From the IMG/VR virus record IMGVR_UViG_3300028887_000087: DNA of 64,000 bases; one strand, 5' to 3'. The notes under the pieces were generated by a model. It made no database searches. It saw only the letters and a list, made by a program, of their open reading frames with translations, and had not been told where the DNA came from. Source of the stretch: a virus (Duplodnaviria; Heunggongvirae; Uroviricota; Caudoviricetes). Position 1 is the first letter of the stretch. Every line of letters begins with the position of its first letter. The position numbers and the translations under genes were made by a program. This document shows, in pieces, positions 10,269-51,717 of this stretch.

Positions 10269-10282
10269 AATGGAGGTTCACT

Positions 10283-10549: not shown

Positions 10550-10571
10550 TTGATTTAAGAAGGACACCTCA

Positions 10572-22867: not shown

Positions 22868-23815
22868 ATGTTTAAGTTTAGTGACAACTCTTACATTGAA
22901 GGTCAGCTCGACCTATGTCAAACATTAAACAATAAATATGCCTCAATGGACGATTGTTTCTTCGAGCCTCAAGGCTATGATCTTGAGCGCTATGAAGAAA
23001 ATAGCGCTTTAGGAATTAAAAGAATTGTATTTGAGGCAGGAAAGAATTACGATTATCATAGTGACCGCGACACTGTACTTGCATATTGGAGAGCACGCGG
23101 TCGCCCTAAAGGCAACAATGCCGTACTTCACAAGTTTGAATATACAAACAAAACAAACCAAACCGCACAAGTTTTCGTTACTTATTATGACCACTTTCAA
23201 AATAATGAATTAAGCTATTACGATTGGAACGGAAACTATTGTCCTTATTTTTTTACAAGTTATTCAAGCGGCAGCAGTAGCAGTAGCGGTTCTTATGAGT
23301 ACGACTTCAGTGGTGATGGTGATATTGACGCAAGAATTCATTGCAAAAGAAATTATCGGTACGTAGAAGTAGCTTATTCTTGGACAACAGGTTGGTGGTT
23401 CTGGGAAGAGACACACTGGGGCACAAGAATGGAATGGAGATGGGAAGATGATTACACAACAGACTGCTCTGATAATAACCGTATAACATTTAAGTATTGT
23501 GATTTACCTCCTGGGCAAAATGTTGAAATTTATTTGAGTGGTGAAGATGGCAATTCGATACCTGACCCAGAATGTTATTTGAAAGTTGAAGTTATTTTTG
23601 ATGGCGATCTTCCTGAGGCCTCAGAAAAACCTGCTAATGAGCCAGCTACTGACCCATTCACAAAAGAAAGCTTAAATGGTTGTATAAATAATCTTAATCT
23701 TAAATGGGTTGAAGATAAGACATCTGACTCAAGTATCAATAATATGAACTTTGGTTGGGTTGATGATAAAGTTGATAATGAAGCAACAATTATGAATATG
23801 CATTGGAGAATTTAA
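22868..23815 (+). CDS. hypothetical protein with Trp-rich motif (WTTGWWFWEETHWGTRMEWRWEDD), likely structural
   Basis: ORF; Trp-rich motif resembling giant protein segment. Confidence 0.5.
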   Translation: MFKFSDNSYIEGQLDLCQTLNNKYASMDDCFFEPQGYDLERYEENSALGIKRIVFEAGKNYDYHSDRDTVLAYWRARGRPKGNNAVLHKFEYTNKTNQTAQVFVTYYDHFQNNELSYYDWNGNYCPYFFTSYSSGSSSSSGSYEYDFSGDGDIDARIHCKRNYRYVEVAYSWTTGWWFWEETHWGTRMEWRWEDDYTTDCSDNNRITFKYCDLPPGQNVEIYLSGEDGNSIPDPECYLKVEVIFDGDLPEASEKPANEPATDPFTKESLNGCINNLNLKWVEDKTSDSSINNMNFGWVDDKVDNEATIMNMHWRI

Positions 23816-26619
23816 TGGCTGAGTGTACTATTGTTTATCACGGAAGAGGCATATATAAATTAAACTCAGGTACTATCGTTAGCTTGTATGGCGGTGAGGC
23901 TACTTATAGCTTTAATGTAAGTGACAGCGTTAACATCAGCGATATAGGTACTTATATCAGAAGACTTTCTCCTCTTGATATATTTTACGATGCAGACCCT
24001 TCAATGCCTATGCCTATTTGGGTTAAAGATAACAGTGTTTCAAAAAGTAAATTAAGAAGCTATAATGGGCCTCTTGACTTATACATTGACCATTGTGAAG
24101 ATGGATTTTATAAAGGCGATAATAAAATTCGTTATGTGACAGTAAAGTCAGGTGAAAATGAAAATGCTGTTGAAATGTTTGCAAATTGTAGCAACTTAAA
24201 AGGTGCAAGAATTGAAACAGTAAATGTCTCAGACGCTTCTTCAATGTTTGCAAACTGCGAATCTTTAGAGGACATATCGGGTTTTCAAAGACTTGTAAAT
24301 ACAACAGCTGATTATATTTTCAGTAAAGATAAAAAACTTGCAAAGACTTTAGGTAAGAAAGGCGTTAAAGATACAATCGACGTTTTAGGACACGGACCTG
24401 AATGGTACGACGGCTTAAACAGAACATACTTCTGGGATTGCCCTTATAATGGAACTTTACCTGAATGGCTTGCAAATCAAGCACAAAGCGGCGCTGATTA
24501 TGATTGGCAAAAAAGTCAAGATAATTTCAATCCAAACATTCTTATCTTAAAAGCTATCAATAGTGTACCGTTGAAGAATAGGCTTGATACGCTTAATGAA
24601 ACAAGCACACCTAACCCAGATATAAAATCAGAAATTGACTTTATTGATGACTCAGAAGATAACTTACTTAATCTCCATTTTGATAACACCAATTATAGTG
24701 TGTCTTTTGATACTGAACTGCCTATCAACGGAACTGACCCTTCAAACTGGGTTCGTCAGGACCCTCATATAAGTATGACTGATAATTATGAGGACAAAGT
24801 AAAAGGCATTCAAAATCTTTTATACAACCTTAAAGATATATGGGACTATGGCGCTTTTGAAAATACAAAAGATCCAACACTTGAACTCAATACATCAGTT
24901 GTTCTTAATATGGAACATAATGGTCCAAAGCTTAATGATGTAATATCTCCTATATGGGACCCTGATGATAATTTCAGATTACATCTTAAAGAACTTGATA
25001 TTTCAAATACTATTAAAGAAACTAAAACAATTCAAGAGCATTACTGGGATGGACCTCATACATATAATGATAAAAGAATAAACAATAATAATTGGATTAA
25101 CGCCAATTTATTTATACCTGAAGGCGCTGAAAATACAGAAAGATGGTACAACTGGGTTATAATTGATACTATCACACATCTTGAAGGCAATTATGAAGAA
25201 CTTCGGGGATGGTGGATTGCAACAAAACGGATTCAGACAAAACACGAACCTGTATATGAATATCGTATTACGAATACGCAATATAACACAGGGTCTTACT
25301 TTTGGGTAAAAGATATTGATGAATGGAAAGAAGTCCCATATTTTGTAAGAAGAACTTATAATAATCAAGGACAAGAAATAGGCAACCCACAGCAGTATGA
25401 ATGGCCTTATCAAAAAGTTACTTGGACTCCTACAGGCGCGCCCAACAATAGCGCTTGGTATATCAGAGGAAGTGAAAGAACAGTCAACTATCGTAATTAT
25501 GTTGAAGCTTGGCCTCGCCCATATTATATTGACAAAACGCGTCCTCTTAATATTCAAGTACCTAAGAAAGTTAGATTACAAGACTCTGATTGTCCTGCTC
25601 AAGACATAAGCGGCATTTTCAAAGATGTACCTTATATTAAGACAATTGATTTCTCTATCAATAAAATAACAAAAGCTGATGAACTCTTTATGAATTGTAA
25701 AAATATTGAGTCAGCAATCGGTTCAATAGCAAATCAAGGACGTATTAAAGTTGAAAGTGCAAAACATATTTTTGATGGTGCTTTTATTACAGACCCACAT
25801 ATAGACTTTGTTGTTGATACACTTGATGCTGAAAGTGCTTTTGAAAACTCAGGTGTTGTTGACCCAACATTCTTTACAAGCTGGTCTTCAGTATTGAACG
25901 GTAATAAATTATTTAAGAACTCAAAAGTTGGAAGTCTTAGAAATGCAGTATTCCCAGAAGGAATACAAACAATTGCAGAAGCTTTTGCTGATTGTGAAAA
26001 CCTTGTTGATGTTGAAGGTAATTGGCTGCAGCCTAACTCAAGTATGCATTACCAAAACTATACATATCACTTGGACACAAACTCTTGGACAAAAGACTGG
26101 GTAAATCCTACAAGTAAAGATGGGTACTTCTATTTCCCAGATAGTGTTCAAGATATTCACAGTCTTTTCAAAGATAGCGGACTTCAATCAGTAAAAGAAT
26201 TAGCTTTGTTGCGTTTTGGTAATAACGATAATGTATTTGATGGCTGTCATAATCTTACTGAAATTGAAAATCTTTACTTAAATGAAAATCCTAATTATGG
26301 CAACATCTTCTATGATACACCTAATCAAAATAAAGATTGGAGAATTTGGTTCCCAACAAACATTAAAAGTTCTTACGCAAATGCAGCCGATATTGGTCTC
26401 GACCCTTATAAAGTCCCTAATCTTTATTGTGATGATGGCTTTATTGTTGTTGATAATGAATCACCCGATTCACAGGTTTATAGACGAGTTGCTTATGAGG
26501 CTGTTCTTAATCCTGAAAGAAAGTTTAAGTTTAATTACTTTTCTCATATACATCCTCATACAATTGACAACAATCGTTTCTATCACGAGATACACGATGT
26601 GGACGTTTGGTATAAATAA
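23815..26619 (+). CDS. large putative structural protein (934 aa) containing BspA-type LRR repeats
   Basis: GGAGAA RBS, TAATG coupling; FANCSNL / FANCESL / FMNCKNI / FADCENL repeats. Confidence 0.55.
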   Translation: MAECTIVYHGRGIYKLNSGTIVSLYGGEATYSFNVSDSVNISDIGTYIRRLSPLDIFYDADPSMPMPIWVKDNSVSKSKLRSYNGPLDLYIDHCEDGFYKGDNKIRYVTVKSGENENAVEMFANCSNLKGARIETVNVSDASSMFANCESLEDISGFQRLVNTTADYIFSKDKKLAKTLGKKGVKDTIDVLGHGPEWYDGLNRTYFWDCPYNGTLPEWLANQAQSGADYDWQKSQDNFNPNILILKAINSVPLKNRLDTLNETSTPNPDIKSEIDFIDDSEDNLLNLHFDNTNYSVSFDTELPINGTDPSNWVRQDPHISMTDNYEDKVKGIQNLLYNLKDIWDYGAFENTKDPTLELNTSVVLNMEHNGPKLNDVISPIWDPDDNFRLHLKELDISNTIKETKTIQEHYWDGPHTYNDKRINNNNWINANLFIPEGAENTERWYNWVIIDTITHLEGNYEELRGWWIATKRIQTKHEPVYEYRITNTQYNTGSYFWVKDIDEWKEVPYFVRRTYNNQGQEIGNPQQYEWPYQKVTWTPTGAPNNSAWYIRGSERTVNYRNYVEAWPRPYYIDKTRPLNIQVPKKVRLQDSDCPAQDISGIFKDVPYIKTIDFSINKITKADELFMNCKNIESAIGSIANQGRIKVESAKHIFDGAFITDPHIDFVVDTLDAESAFENSGVVDPTFFTSWSSVLNGNKLFKNSKVGSLRNAVFPEGIQTIAEAFADCENLVDVEGNWLQPNSSMHYQNYTYHLDTNSWTKDWVNPTSKDGYFYFPDSVQDIHSLFKDSGLQSVKELALLRFGNNDNVFDGCHNLTEIENLYLNENPNYGNIFYDTPNQNKDWRIWFPTNIKSSYANAADIGLDPYKVPNLYCDDGFIVVDNESPDSQVYRRVAYEAVLNPERKFKFNYFSHIHPHTIDNNRFYHEIHDVDVWYK

Positions 26620-26681: not shown

Positions 26682-28754
26682 ATGAGTGAAAGATTTATTG
26701 AGGTAAACGGCCATAAGCTTTATCACATTCGTGAAAGTGCTTTGCGTTTATCAAACAATGATTACAAGCTTCTTAATGAAAATGAAATCCCAACAGAGTT
26801 AAAAGAATCGAGAGCATATAAAGCAAATGTAGGCAAACGCTTTACAGAGTCTGAAACTACAGGTGCTTTGAAAGCTGCTATCAAACTTCGTGAAGGTACA
26901 ACAAATCTTCAGGAAAGAGCAGTTTTCGATAATGTTATCAAGAAACTCCGTGAGGAAGGCATTTCTTCAGAAAGAAAGCTTTGGAAATTTCCAGTATCAA
27001 GATTCGGTAATGTAAACGGCAACGGTCGTATTTATACTGAACAGTTGTGGCGTAATGTTATCAACAATCAAAGAGATACTTGGCAAGGTGGTTGTGGTCT
27101 TGCAGATCACCCAATGGACGACGCTGACCCAGGACAGTTCAAGACATCAGCTATTGTTTGGCTTGATATGATTATTGATACTGCCAACAAACTTATCTGG
27201 GCTATCGGTACATTCGTTGGCGAATATGGTCGTCTTGCTCAGGAAATCATTGAAGCAGGTGGACGTGTAGGTTTCAGTTCATCAGGATTTGGCGAAACAC
27301 TTTCTGATGGTAAAACTGTTGACCCAGATACATATATCATTGAAAGAGTGGCAGACATCGTAACAAATCCGTCACAGTCAGTTTTCGGTGACATTTCTTC
27401 AGAGCAGTCATATAACCCTGGGAATGTTGAATATTCAAAGCAAACTAGGGAGTCTGTTGAAGTCTCACCTAAATCAAAGATTATAGAAGGAAAGGAAAAA
27501 CATATGAAAGTAGATGCAGTAAATATGGACGAAGGCAAGACAGCTGCTCCTGAGACAAAACTCGAGGAAGGCAAAGTTGCTAATGTAGGACCTGCTACAC
27601 TCTCAAAGCTTGAAAGAAAAGTAATTGAGAAGCAGGTTGAGTCGATGTTGAATGAAGCTGACAACTCAGCTAACCCAATGGAAAAGCTCACAGAAGTAAA
27701 CGAGCTTCTCAAACTTGTTAAAGAGTCTAACGACGAAGAACTTATCAACAAAGTTCAGGAAAAACTTGAAAAGACTCACGCCGAACTTACAGCACTTGTT
27801 GAGTCAGCTGCTGCTGCAACAAAAGAGTTTGGTGACCTCAACGAAATGGTTGAAAACACAAAGAAGAATCTTCAGATTGGTGTTCTTCTTAACGAACAGG
27901 TTGCTGATTATAAGGAACTCTGCGAAGGCTTGACAACTCGCAACCGCGAACTTGCAAAGCAGAATGCAATCCTTGAGTCTAAACTTGCACTCAAAGAAAA
28001 CCACATTGCAAAAACTGAAGAAACAGTTAAAAATGAAAAGATGGCTGAGGAAAAGACTGTTGCTGATTTGAAAGCAAAACTTGAAGAATCAGAGTCAAAA
28101 CTTGCTGAAGCTGAAATGAAAGTTGCTTCTCTTACAAAAGGCAACAAAAAGATGGAATCTGATAACGGCGTATTGAGAACTCGTCTCAACCACGTTATGA
28201 GCAACCTCAAGATTGCTAACGAAAATATTGAAAAGCTCACAAAAGAAAACACAACACTTCTCGAAAGCAAGAACACATATCGTCAGAAGGTTATCCGCTT
28301 ACAGACAACTATCAAAGAAAACGAAGCAACACTTGCTGCTGAAAGACAGAAGTTTGAAGAGTATAAACAGATGAACAAGCCAAAGCTTGACTTTGAGCCT
28401 GCACAGGTTGAAGCTGTTTCAAAATATCTCAACATCCGCGAGAGCAAAGGCCTTGCAGTTGAAAATTATTGGAATGACCTCGTATCACAGTACGGCGAAG
28501 CAGTTAAGCCATTCGAGCGCCAGATTCGTGGTGCAAAAACATACCGCGAAGCATTCGATGCATTTATGAAATATTTGCCAAGAATTGACGAATCTGCAGG
28601 ACAGGCTGAAGCAGCTGCTTGGGATGAAGGTGTTGGTACATACCGCGAGAGACAGCAGAATCTCGAAGATGCAGGTATGGAAAAGATGACTGAGGACATC
28701 GATGAAATCAACGCAATCGAGCTCGAAAATATGAGAAAAATGGGATTGATGTAA
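26682..28754 (+). CDS. 690-aa protein: N-terminal globular domain + long E/K/A-rich coiled coil; possible prohead protease/scaffold-like
   Basis: GGGAG RBS; ~300 aa heptad-like EKLxxE repeats; function inferred only from architecture. Confidence 0.55.
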   Translation: MSERFIEVNGHKLYHIRESALRLSNNDYKLLNENEIPTELKESRAYKANVGKRFTESETTGALKAAIKLREGTTNLQERAVFDNVIKKLREEGISSERKLWKFPVSRFGNVNGNGRIYTEQLWRNVINNQRDTWQGGCGLADHPMDDADPGQFKTSAIVWLDMIIDTANKLIWAIGTFVGEYGRLAQEIIEAGGRVGFSSSGFGETLSDGKTVDPDTYIIERVADIVTNPSQSVFGDISSEQSYNPGNVEYSKQTRESVEVSPKSKIIEGKEKHMKVDAVNMDEGKTAAPETKLEEGKVANVGPATLSKLERKVIEKQVESMLNEADNSANPMEKLTEVNELLKLVKESNDEELINKVQEKLEKTHAELTALVESAAAATKEFGDLNEMVENTKKNLQIGVLLNEQVADYKELCEGLTTRNRELAKQNAILESKLALKENHIAKTEETVKNEKMAEEKTVADLKAKLEESESKLAEAEMKVASLTKGNKKMESDNGVLRTRLNHVMSNLKIANENIEKLTKENTTLLESKNTYRQKVIRLQTTIKENEATLAAERQKFEEYKQMNKPKLDFEPAQVEAVSKYLNIRESKGLAVENYWNDLVSQYGEAVKPFERQIRGAKTYREAFDAFMKYLPRIDESAGQAEAAAWDEGVGTYRERQQNLEDAGMEKMTEDIDEINAIELENMRKMGLM

Positions 28755-28774
28755 TCAAACCTTAAATAACCGAA

Positions 28775-28810
28775 AGGACAAATTCGCAAGGATTTGTCCT
28801 TTTTTATTTT
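28775..28810 (+). terminator. Rho-independent terminator (AGGACAAAT-loop-ATTTGTCCT + T5)
   Basis: Perfect 9-bp stem, 8-nt loop, TTTTT tail. Confidence 0.75.
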
Positions 28811-28897: not shown

Positions 28898-28940
28898 AAT
28901 TAAACTTTACAGTCGACTTCTTTATATTATATTTGACGTA
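28898..28940 (+). promoter_or_regulatory. class-1 phage promoter-like bipartite motif
   Basis: aattaaacttt-N12-tttatattatatttgacgtaAGGAGGatgttATG. Confidence 0.55.
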
Positions 28941-28951: not shown

Positions 28952-29266
28952 ATGATTTACGTTGCAGAAGTTAAAACAGCAGCAGGTGTTTATTTCAGAT
29001 TTTACGAAACAACAAAATTGACGAAAAGAACAGAAACAGTTCAGGCAGTCGGTGTAAAGCCTTATAGTAAAATTTCCTCAACAGAGTTTGAAGTTCAGCC
29101 CGATTTGAATAATCACTACGGACCTGAGTTCCGTGTTCAGAAAAACGGTGCAGGACTTTATATTGAAGGCAACGGCAAAAAAGGTCTTCAGAGAACTTAT
29201 CTGACTGAAGGCTACAACGCAAACAAAAAATATATAAATATTTTCGACAAATCTAAACTTCAGTAA
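28952..29266 (+). CDS. hypothetical protein (104 aa)
   Basis: AGGAGG RBS, class-1 motif upstream. Confidence 0.55.
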   Translation: MIYVAEVKTAAGVYFRFYETTKLTKRTETVQAVGVKPYSKISSTEFEVQPDLNNHYGPEFRVQKNGAGLYIEGNGKKGLQRTYLTEGYNANKKYINIFDKSKLQ

Positions 29267-29292
29267 GTTGATCTTTATATTATTATTGTCAG
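29253..29292 (+). promoter_or_regulatory. class-1 phage promoter-like bipartite motif
   Basis: ctaaacttc-N12-tttatattattattgtcag then AAAGGAGGA. Confidence 0.5.
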
Positions 29293-29312
29293 TTCAATTA
29301 AAGGAGGACGTT

Positions 29313-29783
29313 ATGACAAAAGCTGAAAGAGAAGAGAAGTTTGCAGGCCGCGTTCACAAGGAAGCAATTCGTTTGTTTGTTTTTTCAAAGGACTGCCCTT
29401 CTTATCTTAACCCATACAATTATGTTCGCAACGCTCTTATGGATAAGTTTGTAGTTGCTGCAAACGATATTCTTGCAAAGAACGAAAAGAACAATTTCGT
29501 TTCAGGCTTTACAGCTTCAGTTGTTCAGCAGATTGAAACAAAGGGTTATGTTTCAAACAATCAGCTTGCTCAGATACAGCGTATCCTTTCTGAAAACGGT
29601 TTCTTGACTGAGGCTGATCTGTCAGCTCTCGAAAATGACGGTGAAAAAGAAAAGGCAGCTCGTTTTGAATATCTTGAGTCACATTACGAGGAACTTTGTT
29701 CAAAGTTTGAACTTCAGGCAACTGAAAACGTTAAGGCTGCAAACCGTGCTTACGCTGCAGGTTTCCATTACAGGAGATGGTAG
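29313..29783 (+). CDS. hypothetical protein (~156 aa)
   Basis: ATG 29313 after AAAGGAGGA RBS (TTG alt 29268). Confidence 0.55.
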   Translation: MTKAEREEKFAGRVHKEAIRLFVFSKDCPSYLNPYNYVRNALMDKFVVAANDILAKNEKNNFVSGFTASVVQQIETKGYVSNNQLAQIQRILSENGFLTEADLSALENDGEKEKAARFEYLESHYEELCSKFELQATENVKAANRAYAAGFHYRRW

Positions 29784-29785
29784 GA

Positions 29786-30349
29786 ATGGAACAGAAGTTT
29801 TTCAAAAACACAAACTTTTATAACGGCTGCGGACCTAAGGGAATTGCAATAAAGTTTTCTCTCCAAAGCTTGAATGTTGCTCGTGCTTTCATAAAAGGTT
29901 GCGGCGGTGTTATTGACAGCGAAAAGTCAAGAGCAGATGCTTATAAGCACGCTCAGTGGCTTATTGACCAAGGCAACTATACATATTATATTGACAACGA
30001 AAACGGTACACCTTTTGAAGACCTTCCTAAAAAAGAACAGGAAAAGATTCACGCGCCTCAGTGGGGTGATAAAGGTAAATGGACTAAATGGACTCCTGAA
30101 CGTATTCTTGAAAGAGACGGTTGGTATGAAGGCGAAGTTTATTGGTTTTCAATTCAAAAAGACAATACTTATACTTATCAACTTATCTTAAAGGAAGGCG
30201 ATTGGATTTTCCGCGAACTTCTTACTTCTGACCCAGTAAAGTTCAGAAAGGCAGAAGATATTGATGGAAATCCTGCAATCCCTTATATGAGTGATTGGGA
30301 AGAAGTTTCAGAAGAAGACTTCGATAAGATAGAAGTAAATGTAGGTTAA
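29786..30349 (+). CDS. hypothetical protein (~187 aa)
   Basis: ATG 29786, CAGGAG RBS. Confidence 0.5.
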   Translation: MEQKFFKNTNFYNGCGPKGIAIKFSLQSLNVARAFIKGCGGVIDSEKSRADAYKHAQWLIDQGNYTYYIDNENGTPFEDLPKKEQEKIHAPQWGDKGKWTKWTPERILERDGWYEGEVYWFSIQKDNTYTYQLILKEGDWIFRELLTSDPVKFRKAEDIDGNPAIPYMSDWEEVSEEDFDKIEVNVG

Positions 30350-30352
30350 TAT
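30345..30352 (+). promoter_or_regulatory. class-2 TTAATAT box 6 nt before ATG 30359 (leaderless candidate)
   Basis: ggttaatatttgtttATG; no SD. Confidence 0.4.
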
Positions 30353-30358
30353 TTGTTT

Positions 30359-31174
30359 ATGGACAAAAAGATACGATTGGCGAAAAAACATTATATTCAC
30401 ACATCAGAACCTGCAAAGTATATTTTTGATTATACGCAGCAGAAGTTCAAATATGTATCTCACTCTTACTTCAATTCAATTCTTGAAGATTACAAAAATA
30501 AGTTGTACAGTTTACGGGAAGACTATGTTGCTGCAAAATGCGAAGCACATCATAAGCAGATTGAAATCGAAGATGCGAAAAAGCATTTGTCATATTCTTA
30601 TATGGAGTACAAAAGTAATCGTAATGAAACAACTTTGGAAAAACTCCGACTTGCAACAAACTCTTATCACATTATAAGAGACGCTTGGAAAGCTCAGGCA
30701 ACTGAAGTTATTCAAATAAGAAATCATATAAAAGAAGTTGAAAGAAAACTTAATTCAATTTGTGAAGTCGTTCCTGCAGATATTTTGACTAAATGTCTTA
30801 CAAAAGAATGGAAGACAAAGAGCGCAGGCCTTCTTTCTGATAAGAGAATTGAACAAAGATGGAATTATATTATTTCATTAGTTAAAGAAGCAAGACACAA
30901 TTCTTATAGTTATCATAATGGCTTTGTAAGAATTATGGGTGATGCTTTTAAGACCAGAAAGATACCTATGATTGCAGAGACTGCTGACCACAATTTTATC
31001 TTTTATTATATTGACAAGCAGTCACACGAAATGATGCCTGTAAATATCAAAACTTTTAAATCTTTAGGAAAAGCCGTAAACGGTATGTTAATATCATTAA
31101 CACAGGAAGAAGGCTTTTCAGCAGAAGACATTGGAAAGAATTTCAGTTTCAAAGCTGAGATAAAATATTTTTAA
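30359..31174 (+). CDS. hypothetical protein (~271 aa)
   Basis: ORF, no SD. Confidence 0.5.
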   Translation: MDKKIRLAKKHYIHTSEPAKYIFDYTQQKFKYVSHSYFNSILEDYKNKLYSLREDYVAAKCEAHHKQIEIEDAKKHLSYSYMEYKSNRNETTLEKLRLATNSYHIIRDAWKAQATEVIQIRNHIKEVERKLNSICEVVPADILTKCLTKEWKTKSAGLLSDKRIEQRWNYIISLVKEARHNSYSYHNGFVRIMGDAFKTRKIPMIAETADHNFIFYYIDKQSHEMMPVNIKTFKSLGKAVNGMLISLTQEEGFSAEDIGKNFSFKAEIKYF

Positions 31175-31195
31175 ATTATTTTTTGGAGGTTGCAA

Positions 31196-32830
31196 ATGAT
31201 GATGGTATTTGCGATTGCGGGAGGAGCAACACTGTTCGTTCTCCTTTTGATTATGTTCTTTGTTGGTTATTTCAAAGCTCCAACAAACAAGTGTTATGTT
31301 ATTTCAGGTTTGAGAAAGACAGCCCGTAAAGTTATCGGTAAGTCCGGTTTCCGTATTCCGTTCCTTGAACGTAAAGATGAACTTACACTCGATTTGATTT
31401 CAGTCGATGTAAAGACACAGGAAGCTGTTCCTACTGCTGAATGTATCAATATTTCAGTTGATGCTGTTGCAAATATTAAGATTGGTACTTCTGAAGAAGC
31501 CTTGGCAAAAGCTGCACAGCACTTCTTAAATAAAGATGCTCGTGACATCAATGCAACTGCCCGTGAGGTTCTTGAAGGAAACTTGCGTGAAATTGTTGGT
31601 ACAATGTCTTTGAAGGCTATGATGAATGACCGTAAAACTTTTGCGGAAGCCGTTCAGCAGAATGCCGTTCCTGACTTGGACCGTATGGGTCTCGAGATTG
31701 TATCTTTCAATGTTCAGAACTTCAGTGACGAGCAGGGTGTAATCAACAACCTCGGTATTGACAATATCGCAACAATTCAGAAGAATGCTTCTATTGCAAA
31801 GGCAAATGCTAACAAGGAAGTTGCTGTTGCAGAAGCAAAAGCTCGTGAGGAAGCAAACGATGCAAAGGTTGCAGCAGATACAGCAATTGCTGAAAAGAAC
31901 AACGCTCTTGAAGTTCGTAAAGCTGAACTCGAAGCTGCCCGCTTGAAGGAAGTTGCAAAGTCTGAAGCTGCAGGTGCTATCGAAAAGGAAACACAGCGTA
32001 AGACAATCGAAATCACAAAGCAGAATGCCGAAATCGCCCGTCTTGAAAAAGAGACTGAGTTGAAGGAACAGGAAATCGCAATCAAGGAAAAGGCTCTTGA
32101 TGCTGAAATCAAAAAGCAGGCTGATGCTGAAAAGTATGCTGCACAGACAAAGGCTGATGCTGAACTTTATGAAAGAACAAAGGCTGCTGAGGCTGAAAAG
32201 ATTGAACGCGAACGCAATGCGGAAGCAAATCTTATTGCTCTTCAGAAGAAAGCTGAAGCTGAAAAGTACGAACAGGAAAAATCTGCTGAAGCTTTGATTG
32301 CAAAAGCTGATGCTGAAAAGAAAGCAAAGGTTGCAGAAGCCGAAGGTCAGAAAGCTCTTGCTGAAGCAATTCAGGCAAAGGGTGAAGCTGAAGCTGCCGC
32401 TGTAAAGGCAAAGCTCCTTGCTGAAGCAGACGGTATCAAACAGAAGGCCCTTGCTGAGGCTGAAGGTTTGAAGGAAAAAGCTGAAGCTATGAAGCAGTAC
32501 GGTGATGCTGCTAAGATGCAGATGGAACTTGATACTTTGAAAGTTCTCTTTACACAGTTGCCTGAGATGGCAAGAGCTGCAGCAGAACCTTGGAGCAAAG
32601 TTGGAAATGTCACAATCTATGGTGGCGGAAAAGACGGTTCAAGTGGTGAAATGCTTACAGGCAACATCACAAAGACAATCACACAGGTTGCAAGCGGCTT
32701 GAAAGACAGCCTCGGTATCGACCTTGGAAGTGTAGTATCATCAATGCTAGCAGGTAAACTTGCAGGCAAAGAACTCGGCGCTGCTCTCGATGCTGCAACA
32801 AAGTCAACAAAGAATCCAAAAAGTGAATAA
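31196..32830 (+). CDS. flotillin-like SPFH/band-7 family membrane protein
   Basis: N-terminal TM helix, SPFH-like domain (PFLERKDELTLDLISVDV...), ~250 aa EA/K-rich flotillin-type coiled-coil repeats; GGAGG RBS. Confidence 0.75.
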   Translation: MMMVFAIAGGATLFVLLLIMFFVGYFKAPTNKCYVISGLRKTARKVIGKSGFRIPFLERKDELTLDLISVDVKTQEAVPTAECINISVDAVANIKIGTSEEALAKAAQHFLNKDARDINATAREVLEGNLREIVGTMSLKAMMNDRKTFAEAVQQNAVPDLDRMGLEIVSFNVQNFSDEQGVINNLGIDNIATIQKNASIAKANANKEVAVAEAKAREEANDAKVAADTAIAEKNNALEVRKAELEAARLKEVAKSEAAGAIEKETQRKTIEITKQNAEIARLEKETELKEQEIAIKEKALDAEIKKQADAEKYAAQTKADAELYERTKAAEAEKIERERNAEANLIALQKKAEAEKYEQEKSAEALIAKADAEKKAKVAEAEGQKALAEAIQAKGEAEAAAVKAKLLAEADGIKQKALAEAEGLKEKAEAMKQYGDAAKMQMELDTLKVLFTQLPEMARAAAEPWSKVGNVTIYGGGKDGSSGEMLTGNITKTITQVASGLKDSLGIDLGSVVSSMLAGKLAGKELGAALDAATKSTKNPKSE

Positions 32831-32855: not shown

Positions 32856-32879
32856 GGCGGGTTTCGGCCCGCCTTTTTT
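32856..32879 (+). terminator. Rho-independent terminator (GGCGGG-TTTCGG-CCCGCC + T6), A6 upstream
   Basis: GC stem-loop followed by TTTTTT. Confidence 0.8.
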
Positions 32880-32904: not shown

Positions 32905-33144
32905 ATGGCAAACGATGGAACAGCAAAGGGAAGAGTTCAGCAAGAACTTGAAGAACTCCGAACAAGAAATCAAAAACTTGGTTGCCTTCTCGGCAAAATA
33001 AAATCAGATAACTGGGTTGCACATCAGAAGCTTTTGAATTCATTATCAAATGAACAGAAAAAGTTGTTGAAAAAGCAGTATGCCGTTCAGAAAGAATATA
33101 TTCGTATTCTTGAGAAAAGATTGAAAATTTGGGTGGAGGAATAA
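32905..33144 (+). CDS. hypothetical protein (79 aa)
   Basis: AAGAGG RBS. Confidence 0.5.
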   Translation: MANDGTAKGRVQQELEELRTRNQKLGCLLGKIKSDNWVAHQKLLNSLSNEQKKLLKKQYAVQKEYIRILEKRLKIWVEE

Positions 33145-33145: not shown

Positions 33146-33436
33146 ATGGGAGTTTCTTTCGATTGCACAAAAGAAGAACATATTTTCAGAAAGAAGCCTG
33201 TGACTATTGCAGCGATTGGTTGGAATGGTAAAAACTTTGATGCAGTGAAAAAGTTTGCAGGCGATAATGTTTACCTTGAGAACGGTGAATTGATTATCAA
33301 AACTTTGGAAGACGGGGTTGACGGAAAAGTAAAGCACGCAGCAACTGTTGGTGATTTTGTTATTCGTGGTGTTAAAGGTGAATACTACTTCTGCAAACCT
33401 GACATCTTCGAAGCAACTTATGAGGTTGTTGAGTAA
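33146..33436 (+). CDS. hypothetical protein (96 aa)
   Basis: GGAGGA RBS. Confidence 0.5.
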   Translation: MGVSFDCTKEEHIFRKKPVTIAAIGWNGKNFDAVKKFAGDNVYLENGELIIKTLEDGVDGKVKHAATVGDFVIRGVKGEYYFCKPDIFEATYEVVE

Positions 33437-36163: not shown

Positions 36164-37888
36164 ATGGGTGCAACAACTTTCTCTGCGATAAACAAAGTTT
36201 GTATGGTTGTGTATCGCAAAAATAAAATAGAAATTCCTGACTCAAAAGAGATTACTCAGCTTATGGAGTATTTTCATATTGAAAAGGAAGAAGCAATACT
36301 CTTTGCTTATTTTACTTATCGAAAGATTGAAGAAAGTTGTGCTTATTTTACGCTTGAAGACTTAAACCGCGACGTTGATGTTTCAATGACAGAAACACTT
36401 TCTTATATTCCTACAATCGAAAACTTGCTTAAGAAAGGTTTGTTCTGCTTAAGAGACAAAATAAAGTTTGACCCAAATGTTCAGAAAGTTGACAGATGGA
36501 CAGCTTTCACAGTTGATGAAGAACTTATTGACTTGATTACTTATAATAAGCCAATTGAAGATTATAAGCCAACTTATTCAACTAAAGTTTACAATGCGGT
36601 TGACTTCATTTCATCAATTTACAATCTCCCAAAAAGAATGTTGCGTTCAAAATACAGTATGTCTCACCACGTTGCGCCTTATATGAAAGACCCTTGGGTT
36701 AAAAAGCTTGTAAACGATTTGGTTGATATGGGTGACGGAAGAGGCAAGAAATGTGAGGATGCTGATAATAGCGATATTATCATAGTCGACCCAATGGGAT
36801 CTTGGACAAACTTCCTTCACTTTTGTATGCTTGCTCGTGAGTTGTGGACAGAAAAGACAGCATCAGTAAAAGGTGTGTTCTCTGATTACGATGTTTCAAC
36901 AAACGATATTATTTATGAACTTAATCAGATAAAGACAGGAAAGTCTGTTCTTATTCAGAAAGAATATTTTGAATTGGACAAGACTGATATTGCCGATAAT
37001 ATTGAAGTAATATGGGGACCTAGAGTTCTCAAGGCTTTTGAAGGCTACGAAGACTTATTGCTTCAGGAAAGCTCAGGCAAAGAATTGCAGAAAATTGAGT
37101 TTAAGGACATTAAGCCAAAAAACTTATATTATAACGAATCTAATGAAAAAGACATCGAACGTCTTGAAAGTATTATGAAGGAAGAAAATTACCTTCAGTT
37201 GAGAAAGCGTCTTGACGAAAAGGGATTGCCAAAAGGCCTCACAGTACTTTTATACGGAGCACCTGGGACAGGTAAAACTGAAACAGTTATGCAGCTTGCA
37301 AAAAAGACAGGACGCGATGTGTATCATTTGAATATTGAACAAATAAAAAGTTGTTGGGTGGGTGAATCTGAAAAGAACATCAAGGCTATCTTCAAATCTT
37401 ATTACGCATCAAAAGCAAAGATTAAGCCTATACTTCTTTTCAATGAAGCTGATGCCATTATTTCAAAAAGAACATCAGTAGACGGCTCAAATGCAGCAGT
37501 GACAAAGATGGAGAACGCAATTCAAAACTTGCTTCTTGAGGAACTCGAAAAGTTTGACGGTATTTTTATTGCAACGACTAACCGCGCCACTGACATTGAC
37601 TCTGCATTCGACCGAAGACTCCTTTTCAAATTGAAGTTCGAAAATCCGAACGTACCTGTGAAGGTAAAAATTTGGAAGGACCGTTTGGACTGGCTTGACG
37701 ACAATGATGCAAACAAATTAGCAGAACGTTATGACTTATCAGGTGGACAAATTGACAACATTTATCGCAAGTCAGAAATCGACTATCTACTCTACGGCAA
37801 AAAGCCGAGTGTAGATGAATTGCTTGATTTCTGTAAGAAAGAAAAGTTAGGAAATGAAGGCAGTTCTAAAATAGGATTTTGCAACTAA
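36164..37888 (+). CDS. AAA+ family ATPase (SpoVK/CbbX-like AAA domain at C-terminus)
   Basis: Walker A GAPGTGKTE, Walker B LLFNEAD, sensor IFIATTNR, arginine finger FDRRL. Confidence 0.8.
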   Translation: MGATTFSAINKVCMVVYRKNKIEIPDSKEITQLMEYFHIEKEEAILFAYFTYRKIEESCAYFTLEDLNRDVDVSMTETLSYIPTIENLLKKGLFCLRDKIKFDPNVQKVDRWTAFTVDEELIDLITYNKPIEDYKPTYSTKVYNAVDFISSIYNLPKRMLRSKYSMSHHVAPYMKDPWVKKLVNDLVDMGDGRGKKCEDADNSDIIIVDPMGSWTNFLHFCMLARELWTEKTASVKGVFSDYDVSTNDIIYELNQIKTGKSVLIQKEYFELDKTDIADNIEVIWGPRVLKAFEGYEDLLLQESSGKELQKIEFKDIKPKNLYYNESNEKDIERLESIMKEENYLQLRKRLDEKGLPKGLTVLLYGAPGTGKTETVMQLAKKTGRDVYHLNIEQIKSCWVGESEKNIKAIFKSYYASKAKIKPILLFNEADAIISKRTSVDGSNAAVTKMENAIQNLLLEELEKFDGIFIATTNRATDIDSAFDRRLLFKLKFENPNVPVKVKIWKDRLDWLDDNDANKLAERYDLSGGQIDNIYRKSEIDYLLYGKKPSVDELLDFCKKEKLGNEGSSKIGFCN

Positions 37889-37893
37889 CTAAA

Positions 37894-38898
37894 ATGACAG
37901 AGAGGTTAAACAAGTACCTAGCATTTTCCACTTGCGGGGCAGGTATGTTGGCAAACACAATTGGGCTCATCTCAAGGCTGAATTATTTTGACGGCGGTCT
38001 TCTTTATTTTGTAAACATCGCATCTACAGCTTTTTCACTTTTTTGTATTATTGCCTTGGGAGCAATCTTTTTTAGGAGAAAAGAGTATACAAAGTACATA
38101 AGCGCAATCGTTATAATTACCGCAGCAGTAAATTTTCCGATAACTTTTTTGACAAATCAAAGTAATATATTTATGTTCTATCTTCCTATGATGGGAACAG
38201 CAATAGGTTTGCTTTCAATTGAAAATTGGAAAAAGTCAGTTGTTTGGGGTTCGATTGTTTTAGCAGAAGATACAGCAATGATTTTCTTGAAACATTACCT
38301 TGGTTTGTATAATGATTGGTGGGCATCACATTGGATAAATTGTTTCGGAGCAATTATTTCAACTTTCTTATTCTCTGCAATTGTTGTATCACTTACACTT
38401 AAAGCTTTCAGAGATACAAACAAAAGATTGAGTAAAGAAGCTGAACACGACCAACTTACAACAGTTTACAACAGATACAAAATGGACCAAGATATTAAGT
38501 CAAAACTTTATAAGTATGCTGCTATGATTGATATTGACTGGTTCAAAAAAGTTAACGATACTTATGGACACAAAGCAGGTGATAGAGCTTTGCAGCAATT
38601 AAGTCAATCGTTATTAAGATATGTGACAGATGACTTCCGTGTATATCGTTACGGTGGAGAAGAGTTTTTGATACTTTGCCGCAGCGATGAAAAAGATTTT
38701 CTTGAAAGACTTGATATGATTTGGGAAGACCTTGAACTTACATTCTGTTTAAGACAAGGCGAAAAATTGAGTGTTTCAATAGGCGCAGCTTTTTCAGACA
38801 AATCTCATAGGCTTATCAACTTAGCAGACGAAAATCTTTATAAAGCAAAAAATAACGGTCGTCATCAAGTTTGGTACAACAATAATAAACTTTACTAA
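37894..38898 (+). CDS. membrane-anchored GGDEF-domain diguanylate cyclase
   Basis: ~6 N-terminal TM helices; FKKVNDTYGHKAGDRAL; YRYGGEEF; LYKAKNNGRHQV. Confidence 0.8.
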   Translation: MTERLNKYLAFSTCGAGMLANTIGLISRLNYFDGGLLYFVNIASTAFSLFCIIALGAIFFRRKEYTKYISAIVIITAAVNFPITFLTNQSNIFMFYLPMMGTAIGLLSIENWKKSVVWGSIVLAEDTAMIFLKHYLGLYNDWWASHWINCFGAIISTFLFSAIVVSLTLKAFRDTNKRLSKEAEHDQLTTVYNRYKMDQDIKSKLYKYAAMIDIDWFKKVNDTYGHKAGDRALQQLSQSLLRYVTDDFRVYRYGGEEFLILCRSDEKDFLERLDMIWEDLELTFCLRQGEKLSVSIGAAFSDKSHRLINLADENLYKAKNNGRHQVWYNNNKLY

Positions 38899-38935: not shown

Positions 38936-40417
38936 ATGACAATTAAAGATCAGTTCAAAGCAAAAGTCCTCGAGCCTATTGATGAAGCAGGCTTCAAAGC
39001 TTACTTTGTAGGCGGTTGTGTTCGTGACTTTTTGATGGGCGTTGAGCCTCACGATTACGATATTTGCACAACTGCAACCCCTGAAGAATTGCACAAAATC
39101 TTTGATAAGTTTTCAAATGTTTCAGCAAACAGTGAGCCATTCGGTGTTACGATGCCGCTGATTGAAATTGATGGAAAGCTTGAAGAAGTTGAAATTGCAA
39201 CTCTCCGCAAGGATATTACAAAAGGACGACATCCAAAAATCGAGTTTACTCGTGACATCAAAGAAGATGCAGAACGCAGAGATTTTACTGTGAATGCCCT
39301 TTACGAAGATATTGACGGTTTTATTTTTGATATGGTTGGCGGCGCTCAGGACATCAAAAACAGAACATTACGTTTTGTTGGAAATGCTCAGGACCGCATC
39401 GATGAAGACCCATTAAGAATATTCCGTTTTGTTCGTTTCCTTGCTTCAAAAGGTTTCAAGTCAGCTTACACAAAAAGAGAAGTTCTTGATTGGAATTTTT
39501 CTTTTACTGAAGTATCTGCTGAAAGACAGCTGAAAGAGTTAGAGAAAACTTTTGCAGGTAAGTTTTTATTCCCAGATACTTGGGAGTTTGTTTTAGCAGC
39601 AAGAGTTTTAACTCCGTTAGGATTAACTTCGATTATGGTTGACCTGCGAAATATTGTTCAGTCTTGGATGTGGCACGCTGAGGGTTCAACTTGGACAAAA
39701 GACGGAAAGGATTTCAAAGGCGACGAGATAACAGATTTTGACGGTTTTGTTCCTGCAACCCACGGAACTGCTTGGGACCATACACTGTTAGTTATGAAAA
39801 GAATGGCAGAGTTATCAAAAGACTTAGACGAGCACACTCGTTTCGTAATGATGATGGCTGCTTTCTTACACGACATCGGTAAGGCTCATTCAAAGCTGGG
39901 CTTAAAAACAAATACTTTCAAAATTGGAAGCAAAGAGTTTACTGAGACAATTCCTAAGGTTTCTGACCACGATGTTGTTGGCGCTCCTATTGCATACGAT
40001 ATTTGCAAAAGTATCGGTATGACAAACGATGACAGTGAGACAGTTCGCGAGCTGGTTGGCTTACATATGCGAGCTCATCAGTTAGGTGATATGAAATCAA
40101 AGAAGGCAATCTGGGAGATTACTTCAAACCCTATTTTCGATAAACTGGTTATGTTAGCAAAGGCTGATGAGTCAGCTTGTGTTAAGACAGTTGACGATGC
40201 TTGGGTTGGTATTGAGAAATCTTTAGAGAAGCCTATCATTCAGTCAGTTATCGGTAAGCCAATGCCTAAGCCAATTATTACAGGTCAGTTCCTGATTGAC
40301 AAAGGCAGAACTCCTGGGCCAAAGTTTAAGCATATCTTAGATGTTGCATTAAAGATGCAGATTGACAAGGATATGACTGATGCTGAGGCAATTTACAAAA
40401 TTGTGAAAGGATGCTAA
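38936..40417 (+). CDS. cca: CCA-adding enzyme / poly(A)-polymerase-family tRNA nucleotidyltransferase with HD domain
   Basis: GGCVRDFLMG...DYDICT head motif; RRDFTVNAL; HD motif AFLHDIGK. Confidence 0.8.
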   Translation: MTIKDQFKAKVLEPIDEAGFKAYFVGGCVRDFLMGVEPHDYDICTTATPEELHKIFDKFSNVSANSEPFGVTMPLIEIDGKLEEVEIATLRKDITKGRHPKIEFTRDIKEDAERRDFTVNALYEDIDGFIFDMVGGAQDIKNRTLRFVGNAQDRIDEDPLRIFRFVRFLASKGFKSAYTKREVLDWNFSFTEVSAERQLKELEKTFAGKFLFPDTWEFVLAARVLTPLGLTSIMVDLRNIVQSWMWHAEGSTWTKDGKDFKGDEITDFDGFVPATHGTAWDHTLLVMKRMAELSKDLDEHTRFVMMMAAFLHDIGKAHSKLGLKTNTFKIGSKEFTETIPKVSDHDVVGAPIAYDICKSIGMTNDDSETVRELVGLHMRAHQLGDMKSKKAIWEITSNPIFDKLVMLAKADESACVKTVDDAWVGIEKSLEKPIIQSVIGKPMPKPIITGQFLIDKGRTPGPKFKHILDVALKMQIDKDMTDAEAIYKIVKGC

Positions 40418-44609: not shown

Positions 44610-45194
44610 ATGAAAGAGTTTTTTGTTAGTGACTTACATATAGGACACGAAAACTGTTTAAGATTTGACAACCGTCCTTTTAAGGACCTTGCAGAACAGA
44701 ATGAAAAAATGGTTGAAATTTGGAACAAAAGAGTAAAGCCTGAAGACCACGTTTGGATGCTTGGTGATATTCTTTGGTTTGCAAATAAAGAAAATGAAGA
44801 TGTACTTAAATCTCTCAACGGCAAAAAGTATCTCGTCACAGGCAATCACGATGGACGAATGCTTAAAGTCGGACATATCAAAAATCTTTTTGAAGAAATC
44901 CACGAAGGCTATCATAAGCTTCACGACAGCAAAGGTCGTACACTTATTCTTTCACATTACCCAATTATTCAGTTTGACGGCGTAATGCGTGGAAACATCC
45001 ATCTTTACGGACACATCCACGTTAACCCAAAAGATAACGCTTTTATTGAAAAGTGGAAGAAAGAATACGAAAAAGAAATGACAGGACAGGCTGGCAATTC
45101 ATTCAAAGTGAATATGTATAATGTAGGTTTTGCTGTTCCTTATATGGAATGGGGGCCAAAAACATTAGATGAAATATTGGAGGCAAACAAATGA
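44610..45194 (+). CDS. calcineurin-like metallophosphoesterase
   Basis: SDLHIGH, WMLGDI, VTGNHD, SHYP, GHIH motifs. Confidence 0.75.
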   Translation: MKEFFVSDLHIGHENCLRFDNRPFKDLAEQNEKMVEIWNKRVKPEDHVWMLGDILWFANKENEDVLKSLNGKKYLVTGNHDGRMLKVGHIKNLFEEIHEGYHKLHDSKGRTLILSHYPIIQFDGVMRGNIHLYGHIHVNPKDNAFIEKWKKEYEKEMTGQAGNSFKVNMYNVGFAVPYMEWGPKTLDEILEANK

Positions 45195-45700
45195 AACACT
45201 TTATCGTAATTGATATGCAGAATGATTTCTGCACAGGCGCTTTGAAAAACGATGCCGCTGTTGCAATTATACCACGCATTAAAGCGGAATTGCAGGCAGC
45301 AAAGGCAGACAGCGCAAACATCATCTTTACTCGTGATACACACTTTGACGGTTATCTTGAAACAGGTGAAGGTAAGCATCTCCCAGTAAAGCACTGTCTT
45401 CAGAATACAGAAGGCTGGGAAATTGTTCCTGAACTTAAAGAAGAGATTGATGACAAAACTACAGTCATTGACAAGCTTCACTTTGGCTACGACAACTGGG
45501 GCAATTACATCAAGCCTAACGATGAAATTACAATCGTAGGAACTTGTACTGACATCTGTGTTGTAAGCAACGCCCTTGCTCTCAAAATGATTGAAGGTGT
45601 TGAAGTAAAAGTAATTGCTGATTGCTGCGCAGGCCTTACTCCTGAAAGCAACGAAGCTGCATTGACAACAATGAAAATGTGTCAGTGCGAAATTGTATAA
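45191..45700 (+). CDS. pncA: nicotinamidase / isochorismatase-family cysteine hydrolase (PncA-like)
   Basis: VIDMQNDFCTGA, FTRDTHFDG, KHC, IVGTCTDICV, VIADCCAG match PncA catalytic D/K/C and metal-site motifs. Confidence 0.8.
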   Translation: MKHFIVIDMQNDFCTGALKNDAAVAIIPRIKAELQAAKADSANIIFTRDTHFDGYLETGEGKHLPVKHCLQNTEGWEIVPELKEEIDDKTTVIDKLHFGYDNWGNYIKPNDEITIVGTCTDICVVSNALALKMIEGVEVKVIADCCAGLTPESNEAALTTMKMCQCEIV

Positions 45701-46362: not shown

Positions 46363-46461
46363 AAAACTTCATAAAGTTTATCAAGGTATCTCTTATATTG
46401 ATTTACCTTAAAATTACAAATGCAATTGACAGATGGAAGAGAAACAGACAGGAGAAGAAAA

Positions 46462-49696: not shown

Positions 49697-49992
49697 AGAA
49701 GTATCTTAAAAAGCCTATAATGGTTGAAGCACTTGAATTTGATGGCAGCAATCTTGATGAAGTTAAAAGTTTTATCGAAGAAAGAAAGCGTAAGGCTGAT
49801 AAGTTGACAATTGTAGAATCTGATCTTGCAACATACGAGTATGAATTGATTTTACCAAACGGTCAGGGCATTGGCTTTAAGAAAGGTGACTTTCTTGTTC
49901 AAGGTGTTGATGGTTCAATTTACCCAGTACATAAAAACACTTTTTGGAAAGTTTACGAAACTCTTGATGACGATAATTATATAAGTTGGTAG
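49690..49992 (+). CDS. hypothetical protein (100 aa)
   Basis: coupled ORF. Confidence 0.45.
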   Translation: MVKKYLKKPIMVEALEFDGSNLDEVKSFIEERKRKADKLTIVESDLATYEYELILPNGQGIGFKKGDFLVQGVDGSIYPVHKNTFWKVYETLDDDNYISW

Positions 49993-51701: not shown

Positions 51702-51717
51702 TTGGAGGTTCACTTAT

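Follow-up and report, generated by a model that had tools for sequence, protein, structure and literature searches.

Why would a bacteriophage carry a flotillin? The question is raised by the gene at positions 31196-32830 of a 64,000-nucleotide stretch of viral DNA (IMG/VR record IMGVR_UViG_3300028887_000087, Caudoviricetes), hereafter called the window, whose product looks like a bacterial flotillin, a member of the SPFH superfamily that organises membrane microdomains. Bacterial flotillins are widespread, yet their physiological role is debated, and no paper addressing the benefit of a flotillin to a phage was found in the literature searched. We report that a jumbo-phage lineage has retained a complete flotillin under purifying selection. 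The explanation that we consider best overall, with a probability of roughly 55%, is that the gene encodes a functional, host-derived flotillin, held as a jumbo-phage accessory gene and acting as a membrane scaffold in the infected cell. What is unusual is the phage setting and not the protein, the gene being a recurrent, selectable and unstudied accessory gene of large gut phages.

The first point to settle is whether the protein is a flotillin. The gene, its signals and its domains are arranged as follows.

31196..32830, + strand: flotillin gene, 544 amino acids (aa) plus stop codon (domains, fold, alignments, substitution rates)
31185..31189, + strand: Shine-Dalgarno sequence GGAGG, 6 nucleotides (nt) upstream of the ATG, read from the sequence
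31196..31273, + strand: N-terminal membrane anchor, aa 1-26 (hydrophobicity and AlphaFold2 helix)
31283..31813, + strand: SPFH/Band_7 domain, aa 30-206 (PF01145, AlphaFold2)
31757..32491, + strand: long Ala/Glu/Lys-rich helix, the coiled-coil wall region, aa 188-432 (AlphaFold2, composition)
32384..32665, + strand: flotillin C-terminal domain, aa 397-490 (PF15975, flotillin-1 alignment)
32856..32879, + strand: intrinsic terminator GGCGGGT/TTCG/GCCCGCC followed by TTTTTT (-14 kcal/mol, z = -2.05 vs shuffles)

The initial annotation, made from the letters of the sequence, had described a flotillin-like open reading frame (ORF) with a strong ribosome-binding site of its own, an N-terminal transmembrane helix, an SPFH/band-7 core, a coiled coil of roughly 250 residues and a strong terminator, and each of these elements was recovered. 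The frame runs on the + strand from the ATG at 31196 to a stop codon ending at 32830, GGAGG stands 6 nt before the ATG, and the hairpin at 32856-32873 has a 7-bp stem with six G-C pairs. Residues 1-26 are hydrophobic (Kyte-Doolittle 19-residue mean 2.6), and the AlphaFold2 monomer model, built on 54 homologues, contains a helix at residues 2-24 with a predicted local distance difference test (pLDDT) score of about 88-90; membrane insertion is predicted on both grounds, and all aligned bacterial homologues possess an equivalent segment. Because the positively charged KAPTNK follows the anchor helix, the SPFH domain would face the cytoplasm according to the positive-inside rule. This domain matches PF01145 (Band_7) over aa 30-206 with 71.2 bits against a cut-off of 23.6 (E 1.5e-19), includes the motif quoted in the initial annotation, PFLERKDELTLDLISVDV, at aa 55-72, and is modelled as an alpha/beta SPFH domain over residues 25-178 (pLDDT 77-88). 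One uninterrupted helix then spans residues 188-432 (~245 aa); the protein is 61% Ala+Glu+Lys over residues 206-445, and this region aligns with the coiled coil of human flotillin-1. Finally, PF15975 (Flot) is matched at aa 397-490 (43.1 bits, cut-off 27, E 5.6e-11), in a region that aligns with human flotillin-1 residues 307-419.

Comparison with solved proteins leads to the same family. When all PDB sequences were searched with phmmer, the sole matches at E <= 1e-3 were human and mouse flotillin-1/2 chains, the best being human flotillin-1/2 (E 3.5e-45), collinear over aa 25-332 and aa 394-513. Foldseek with the AlphaFold2 model placed the flotillin complexes 9l3g and 9bq2 first (E 3e-22), ranked HflK/C and stomatin (about 1e-11), prohibitin, erlin, QmcA and the major vault protein below them, and also retrieved the HflK/C-FtsH complexes 7wi3 and 9cz2 (E 1e-9 to 1e-11). 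Flotillins of Clostridia, Treponema and Kiritimatiellia can be aligned with the window protein from end to end at 50-55% identity, with every invariant column kept. The initial annotation had allowed for a generic coiled-coil structural protein lacking any Band_7 match; with Band_7 found above its cut-off, and with the flotillin sequence matches and Foldseek fold matches, that candidate is ruled out. The NCBIfam FloT model NF058507 is matched over aa 45-382 (E 5.2e-80), and its 269.8 bits, set against an equivalog cut-off of 700, mark the protein as a member of the family rather than as a FloT equivalog. We regard it as almost certain that the window protein is a flotillin. As a protein it is an ordinary member of the family, which has all the testable defining features except the FloT equivalog score and the optional NfeD partner.

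The second point is whether the gene belongs to a phage, and of which host. Since no virion gene was found, phage identity is inferred from relatives and context. The statement in the initial annotation that the gene is encoded by the phage is well, though indirectly, supported by syntenic relatives in IMG/VR, a jumbo-phage-like helicase and a phage-like architecture, and is left short of a virion hallmark gene. The gene order of the window is also that of a 167-kb metagenome contig (L001), and it recurs in diverged form on two IMG/VR viral contigs, L007 (300,878 bp) and L011 (188,745 bp), and on the 183-kb contig L005; the flotillins of L007 and L005 are 78% and 77% identical to the window copy. 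The helicase of the window belongs to phrog_2488 (E 9e-117); its nearest tblastn match is gp73 of Bacillus phage G (42% identity, E 4e-127), followed by matches in other jumbo or huge phages. Besides the helicase, PHROGs and Pfam recognise a DNA methyltransferase, ThyX, a CCA-adding-type nucleotidyltransferase, an AAA ATPase, a GGDEF protein and nicotinamide adenine dinucleotide (NAD)-salvage enzymes, while the 10-kb flanks of related contigs carry DnaB, an IstB-like loader and a beta-CASP nuclease. Naive ORF calling (longest ORFs, greedy non-overlap) places nearly every sizeable ORF of the window on the + strand, with about 98% of the coding sequence one-stranded and the ORFs small; GC content is 34-41% (overall 0.375), and no tRNA gene occurs in the 64-kb window. 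A megablast of the 24 kb around the flotillin against the phage and plasmid collections gave no match. A 99%-identical flotillin lies on a 306,108-bp contig binned with a metagenome-assembled genome (MAG) of Candidatus Fimenecus (Clostridia), and the AGGAGG-type ribosome-binding sites of the window would fit a Firmicutes-type host. The contigs of about 300 kb carry the accessions JAZNWZ010000130.1 and IMGVR_UViG_3300021387_000529. The window is probably part of a jumbo phage of about 300 kb, whose host is most likely among the gut Clostridia, and the flotillin gene is very probably phage-encoded and functional.

The history of the gene can be read from its substitutions. The Nei-Gojobori ratio of nonsynonymous to synonymous substitution (dN/dS) is 0.05-0.07 against copies 98% identical to the window flotillin, and 0.14 and 0.08 against the L007 and L005 orthologues, at whose 77-78% identity synonymous sites are saturated; the neighbouring ThyX gene gives 0.18. 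At third codon positions the gene has a GC content (GC3) of 0.34, which fits the AT-rich phage (overall GC 0.375); of the bacterial flotillin loci sampled, most have 0.40-0.63 GC. The clade of the window flotillin is monophyletic and is 55% identical to the nearest bacterial sequence. The low dN/dS, the phage-like GC3 and the monophyly of the clade together indicate long retention under purifying selection.

Nor is the window a single case. In a profile-guided scan of IMG/VR, flotillin relatives were found on at least 148 contigs; the best 80 of these have a median length of 131 kb, with 58 of at least 80 kb and 5 of at least 200 kb. At the phage loci at least 90% of the coding sequence lies on one strand and the median ORF is about 130 aa. 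In a neighbour-joining tree, crude in that it is built on corrected p-distances and some of the MAG contigs may be mis-binned phage, the phage flotillins form many clades interleaved with bacterial ones, the nearest bacterial identity ranging from 88% down to about 50%. This interleaving suggests repeated exchange of flotillins between phages and Clostridia and other gut bacteria. Of 50,697 phage records searched by tblastn, only three have near-full-length copies (66-71% of the query, 44-50% identity), all of them uncultured 'Bacteriophage sp.' records from human faeces, and the other five matches are partial and lie in short or unannotated phage records. Other homologues, 54% identical to the window copy, likewise stand in phage-like contexts. 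One of them lies on a contig of megaphage size (L016, 460,660 bp), which encodes ribosomal protein S21 (916-1128) about 5 kb upstream of its flotillin (6001-7494) and ThyX just downstream of it, the same flotillin-ThyX neighbourhood as in the window.

As a separate observation, two divergent groups of IMG/VR phage contigs carry near their flotillin a homologue of the eukaryotic major vault protein (833-855 aa), a second cage former of the SPFH superfamily, which matches PDB 2qzv/4hl8 over aa 313-752 (E 1e-15). In most loci it is the first or second gene after the flotillin, and in L134 and L164 it is several genes away; examples are L133 (10059-12560), L155 (10234-12741) and L134 (13705-16272), and it is also found in L130, L120 and L164. 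No such homologue is present in the window.

What, then, might the protein do in an infected cell? We propose that the phage flotillin would be inserted into the host cytoplasmic membrane by its N-terminal helix and expose its SPFH domain to the cytoplasm, and that its coiled coil and C-terminal domain would drive the assembly of a large closed SPFH cage, formed alone or mixed with host flotillin, which would fence off a patch of membrane. The assembly of a closed cage is suggested by analogy: flotillin-1/2 forms a closed truncated cone of 44 subunits (22+22), 19-32 nm across, with SPFH domains on the membrane and a wall of coiled coils (PMC11260169). The titles of PDB entries among the Foldseek matches indicate that HflK/C likewise cages FtsH. 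In this way the phage might gain extra or replacement membrane-scaffold capacity, and the scaffold might preserve the fluidity, integrity and energisation of the membrane, as well as its scaffolded complexes, through the long infection of a very large phage. As background from bacteria, the flotillins and the SPFH protein YdjI of Bacillus subtilis serve membrane protection and fluidity, with a connection to PspA (PMC8581546), and DynA, a membrane-remodelling protein genetically linked to flotillin, changes the outcome of phage lysis (PMC8844932). A membrane-maintenance benefit of this specific kind is put forward only tentatively, and the two ideas of the initial annotation, reorganisation of the host membrane and modulation of membrane-associated defence, are plausible hypotheses.

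Several observations weigh against the picture of a functional flotillin at work for a jumbo phage. No virion hallmark gene (capsid, portal, terminase) was recognised by PHROGs or Pfam among the roughly 40 ORFs of the window, which represents only about a fifth of a ~300-kb genome, and the same three types of gene were not seen in the 10-kb flanks of related contigs. The flotillin matches no PHROG family, and no cultured complete phage genome encoding one was found among the 50,697 phage records, which leaves no model system. The C-terminal 100 residues of the AlphaFold2 monomer are poorly resolved, with pLDDT below 50. More distant phages that have homologues of a 190-aa gene located upstream of the window flotillin have no flotillin beside it. 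Lastly, L011, whose neighbouring genes are 91-96% identical to those of the window, keeps only an in-frame flotillin remnant (9960-10580, equivalent to window 29313..32830) without the membrane helix or the SPFH domain. A first deletion fused the first ~17 codons of the second gene of the unit described below (MTKAEREEKF...HKEA) in frame to about residue 220 of the flotillin, and so removed a block of upstream genes together with the N-terminal half of the flotillin. A second deletion took out the equivalent of window 31977-32375, leaving part of the coiled coil plus the C-terminus, and both junctions fall at short repeated motifs (HKEA, AKSEA). The flotillin is thus dispensable in at least one close relative.

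The immediate surroundings of the gene bear on how it would be expressed. In addition to the elements given above, three features lie upstream of it.

28772..28803, + strand: terminator-like hairpin closing the preceding unit, a stem of 14 pairs plus a T-run
28906..28933, + strand: sigma-70-like promoter candidate TTTACA-16-TATATT before the first gene of the unit, 10/12 consensus matches
28952..31174, + strand: four upstream genes (104, 156, 190 and 271 aa), soluble, with AGGAGG-type ribosome-binding sites and no hydrophobic segment

The hairpins at 28772-28803 and 32856-32873, located by a simple pattern search for terminators, bracket five co-directional genes (28952..32830), and the flotillin looks like the last gene of a putative five-gene unit rather than a unit of its own. 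It begins just 21 nt after the preceding gene, so that it has its own ribosome-binding site and probably no promoter of its own. The promoter candidate before the first gene is a consensus match only, as 17 promoter-like sites in the region, compared with 13.1 +/- 3.9 in shuffles, are no excess. The flotillin is the only gene of the unit with a hydrophobic segment, and the four upstream genes have no Pfam or PHROG match. The 190-aa ORF (29777-30349) was considered as a conserved partner, as it stands ahead of flotillin in three sub-clades, and was rejected: its 22 homologues are unannotated, it has no PDB relative, and its distant homologues lie away from flotillin. The 271-aa ORF has no PDB relative either. 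A terminator-like hairpin follows within 150 nt in 19 of 33 representatives of the phage flotillin clades, compared with 48 of 505 other genes at the same loci (9.5%; Fisher p = 1e-10) and with 9 of 31 bacterial flotillins.

Directly after the flotillin terminator lies a 79-aa gene (32905-33144, + strand) that matches PF21825 (E 6.4e-11) as well as phrog_3934 and phrog_774. PF21825 is the Sequestin family, whose members have been found experimentally to sequester the Thoeris signal 3'cADPR (bioRxiv 10.1101/2025.07.12.664507), and by this match the gene is likely an anti-Thoeris gene of the phage. Farther downstream follows a set of NAD genes.

45191-45700, + strand: isochorismatase-family (nicotinamidase-like) gene (PHROG/Pfam)
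46420-47265, + strand: NAD synthase (PHROG/Pfam)
51661-53025, + strand: NAPRTase (NAPRTase in Pfam, nicotinamide PRTase in PHROGs)
54837-55472, + strand: NUDIX gene
55484-56062, + strand: NMNAT-like cytidylyltransferase

Judged by their family matches, these genes would make up an apparently complete Preiss-Handler-type pathway leading from nicotinamide to NAD+, and the set may serve to reconstitute NAD as a counter-defence against NAD-depleting immunity. Homologues of the NAD genes are also found near flotillin in other large phages. Across 37 phage clades, the families that occur most often within about 10 genes of the flotillin are a Metallophos_2 phosphoesterase (15 clades), a second metallophosphatase-like family (13), a P-loop kinase-like family (13), a gyrase B-like family (12), NAD synthase (11), Nampt (8), isochorismatase (8) and a macro-domain-like family (7); these names were read from sequence motifs, except for Metallophos_2, NAD synthase, isochorismatase and phosphoribosyltransferase, which were profiled in the window. 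By association, the flotillin sits in an accessory, host-takeover part of the genome and not among lysis or virion genes.

The strongest of the rival explanations is a role in counter-defence, which we nonetheless consider unlikely. One hypothesis is that the flotillin protects the cell from membrane-disrupting abortive-infection effectors and so buys time for the phage, either by caging them or by stabilising or repairing the membrane that they attack. Examples of such effectors are gasdermin-like pores and the transmembrane proteins used by CBASS, Thoeris, Pycsar and type III CRISPR systems. The Sequestin-family gene immediately downstream, the NAD-salvage genes 12-24 kb downstream and the recurrence near flotillin of NAD synthase (11 of the 37 clades), Nampt, isochorismatase and the macro-domain-like family (the last recognised by motif only) would all fit such a role, as would the tie of SPFH proteins to membrane repair through PspA (PMC8581546) and the influence of host DynA on phage lysis (PMC8844932). 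This is, however, guilt by association, and the co-location may reflect the shared synteny of related large phages. The Sequestin gene is a separate unit past the terminator, adjacent to flotillin only in the closest relatives, and the flotillin itself matches no PADLOC-DB defence profile at E <= 0.1; with no PHROG match as well, no phage or defence family name can be assigned to it.

A more far-reaching version of this thought is that large gut phages deploy SPFH-superfamily cage builders, flotillin here and flotillin plus a major-vault-protein homologue elsewhere, specifically for infection. Closed off on the membrane of the host, the cages would either neutralise membrane-disrupting abortive-infection effectors, a new class of counter-defence, or make a protected membrane compartment for phage processes. 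We mention it as a speculation, somewhat less probable again than counter-defence in its simpler form.

It is improbable, in our estimation, that the protein controls access to or exit from the cell, whether by superinfection exclusion, in which a membrane component needed by other phages for DNA entry would be caged or displaced, or by setting the time of lysis through restraint of holin-type lesions. The flotillin is the sole membrane protein of its unit, its dispensability in L011 would suit such a gene, and a place at the end of a unit before a strong terminator, as the hairpin excess in 19 of 33 phage clades reflects, is typical of moron-like accessory cassettes. But no holin, endolysin or spanin was recognised, either next to the window flotillin or in the neighbour families that are conserved, and we know of no documented role for flotillins in superinfection exclusion or lysis timing.

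An equally doubtful proposal is that the protein regulates a host membrane protease or other enzyme in the manner of HflK/C and FtsH, its cage protecting phage proteins or redirecting host proteolysis. Flotillins of B. subtilis are linked to FtsH, the lysis-lysogeny decision of phage lambda depends on HflK/C-FtsH, and Foldseek does recover the HflK/C-FtsH complexes 7wi3 and 9cz2. The protein is nonetheless clearly of the flotillin type, with E 1e-22 for flotillin as against 1e-11 for HflK/C and with PF15975 present, and the unit contains no protease gene.

There is little probability left for the view that the window is not phage DNA at all and instead a segment of a bacterial chromosome or plasmid, or a mis-assembled or mis-binned contig, with the flotillin as an ordinary host gene. 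The deposition of the 99%-identical copy within the Candidatus Fimenecus MAG would agree with it, as would the want of capsid, portal, terminase and tail genes in the window or flanks and the several large window ORFs that have no match in the phage collection. IMG/VR may hold misclassified bacterial contigs, just as the bacterial MAG set may hold mis-binned phage contigs. Yet the nearest bacterial flotillins are just 53-55% identical to the window copy, and at bacterial flotillin loci genes run on both strands and the median ORF measures 250-400 aa, whereas the window is ~98% one-stranded with small ORFs. Furthermore, synteny is shared with IMG/VR viral contigs, and the nearest relatives of the helicase are in jumbo phages; Sequestin, ThyX, the CCA-adding enzyme and the NAD-salvage genes are typical phage accessory genes; the plasmid collection holds no match; and related contigs of 301 and 306 kb agree in size, as expected for near-complete genomes.

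That the flotillin is a recently captured passenger without function for the phage would fit its loss or truncation in L011 and its absence beside homologous neighbour genes in other related phages, and is very hard to credit, being largely refuted by the selection analysis: dN/dS stays at 0.05-0.14 across orthologues diverged to 77-78%, GC3 is already phage-like at 0.34 against 0.40-0.63 GC at most of the bacterial loci sampled, and a monophyletic clade 55% identical to the nearest bacterial sequence means that the gene has been kept for a long time.

Other genes of the window deserve a brief record, all of them on the + strand. A GGDEF-domain protein (37879-38898; PF00990, E 4e-30), possibly a cyclase for a nucleotide signal, is adjoined by a CCA-adding/poly(A)-polymerase-type nucleotidyltransferase with an HD domain (38936-40417). 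A 360-aa protein encoded at 49996-51078 is very divergent and adenylosuccinate-synthetase-like (Pfam Adenylsucc_synt E 4e-14; phrog_1211, '2-aminooxy adenylosuccinate synthetase', E 2.5e-28; PDB matches all labelled adenylosuccinate synthetase). These matches would fit either a PurZ-type enzyme for 2-aminoadenine DNA or a divergent PurA, and no MazG or HD partner was detected near it. Two small paralogues, 27-31% identical through their relatives, lie at 33146-33436, beside ThyX, and at 49690-49992, directly upstream of the PurA/PurZ-like gene; the former belongs to phrog_419 (E 2.7e-21) and weakly matches a 'nucleotide pyrophosphohydrolase' PHROG. A 938-aa protein (23803-26619) has BspA-type leucine-rich repeats (PF13306, E 2.6e-8), and a related LRR_5 protein is found near the flotillin of L005. 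Neither Pfam nor PHROGs recognises a 1970-aa ORF (13202-19114), and a tblastn search of the phage collection with its first 1000 residues was empty; the 957-aa ORF at 57166-60039 and the 690-aa ORF at 26682-28754 are equally orphan by Pfam, PHROGs and tblastn against phages.

To return to the membrane scaffold, recurrence of flotillin on at least 148 viral contigs, mostly from genomes larger than 80 kb and in lineages interleaved with bacterial ones, points to a repeated, selectable benefit of bringing such a scaffold into the infected cell. Should that benefit lie in membrane maintenance, the gene would be an auxiliary gene of a new type among large phages; should it lie in protection from abortive infection directed at the membrane, the gene would represent a new principle of counter-defence. 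Whichever applies, functional work could draw on the phage copies as a compact and naturally diverse panel of flotillins, one natural deletion derivative among them.

Among known systems, the nearest are the bacterial flotillins of Oscillospiraceae, Lachnospiraceae, Ruminococcus and Treponema, which resemble the phage protein in length class (about 500-550 aa) and in the succession of membrane anchor, SPFH domain, EA-rich coiled coil and flotillin C-terminal domain. They differ from it in setting, as the bacterial copies lie amid housekeeping genes (an S6-SSB-S18 operon, glycoside hydrolases) whereas the window gene has phage-type neighbours and a low GC3, and in sequence, as the window flotillin forms a clade of its own that is only 55% identical to the nearest of them. 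FloT (YuaG) of B. subtilis has the same domain order as the phage flotillin; unlike FloT, the latter has no YuaF-like NfeD-type partner in its unit. YqiK of Escherichia coli (b3051, 553 aa) is collinear with it over about 500 residues, is similar in length and also begins with a membrane helix, although identity is just 25% (E 2e-19), and yqiJ lies upstream of yqiK whereas the window flotillin is without such a neighbour. No YqiJ homologue was found, with the E. coli protein as BLAST query, in the window or in the flotillin loci retrieved for that comparison. The 4 ORFs upstream and 6 downstream of the window flotillin contain no Pfam match to NfeD or DUF1449 and none with a hydrophobic segment, and at two Clostridia loci, inspected without a profile search, there is no obvious partner among the ORFs beside flotillin. 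The two-gene SPFH-NfeD module known from YuaF-FloT, YqiJ-YqiK and QmcA-YbbJ was rejected for this locus, no partner gene having been found by these searches beside the flotillin.

The human flotillin-1/2 cage (9bq2, 9l3g) shares with the phage protein the SPFH domain, the coiled coil and the C-terminal oligomerisation region at 27-29% identity. The two differ in membrane attachment, for a true hydrophobic helix stands at the N-terminus of the phage protein while human flotillins use lipidation and hydrophobic SPFH1 contacts, and in the ~60 extra coiled-coil residues of the phage protein (aa 333-393) that remain unaligned with human flotillins. As for phages, nothing on phage flotillins was found in the literature searched, only passing SPFH-domain annotations in two cultured phages. 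Xanthomonas jumbo phage X1 (PMC13384950) and Schitoviridae phage GIB1 (PMC13239085) also encode members of the SPFH superfamily, the function of which is called unclear by the respective authors. Descriptions of those proteins go no further than an SPFH domain or a lipoprotein, whereas the window gene encodes a full-length flotillin complete with PF15975.

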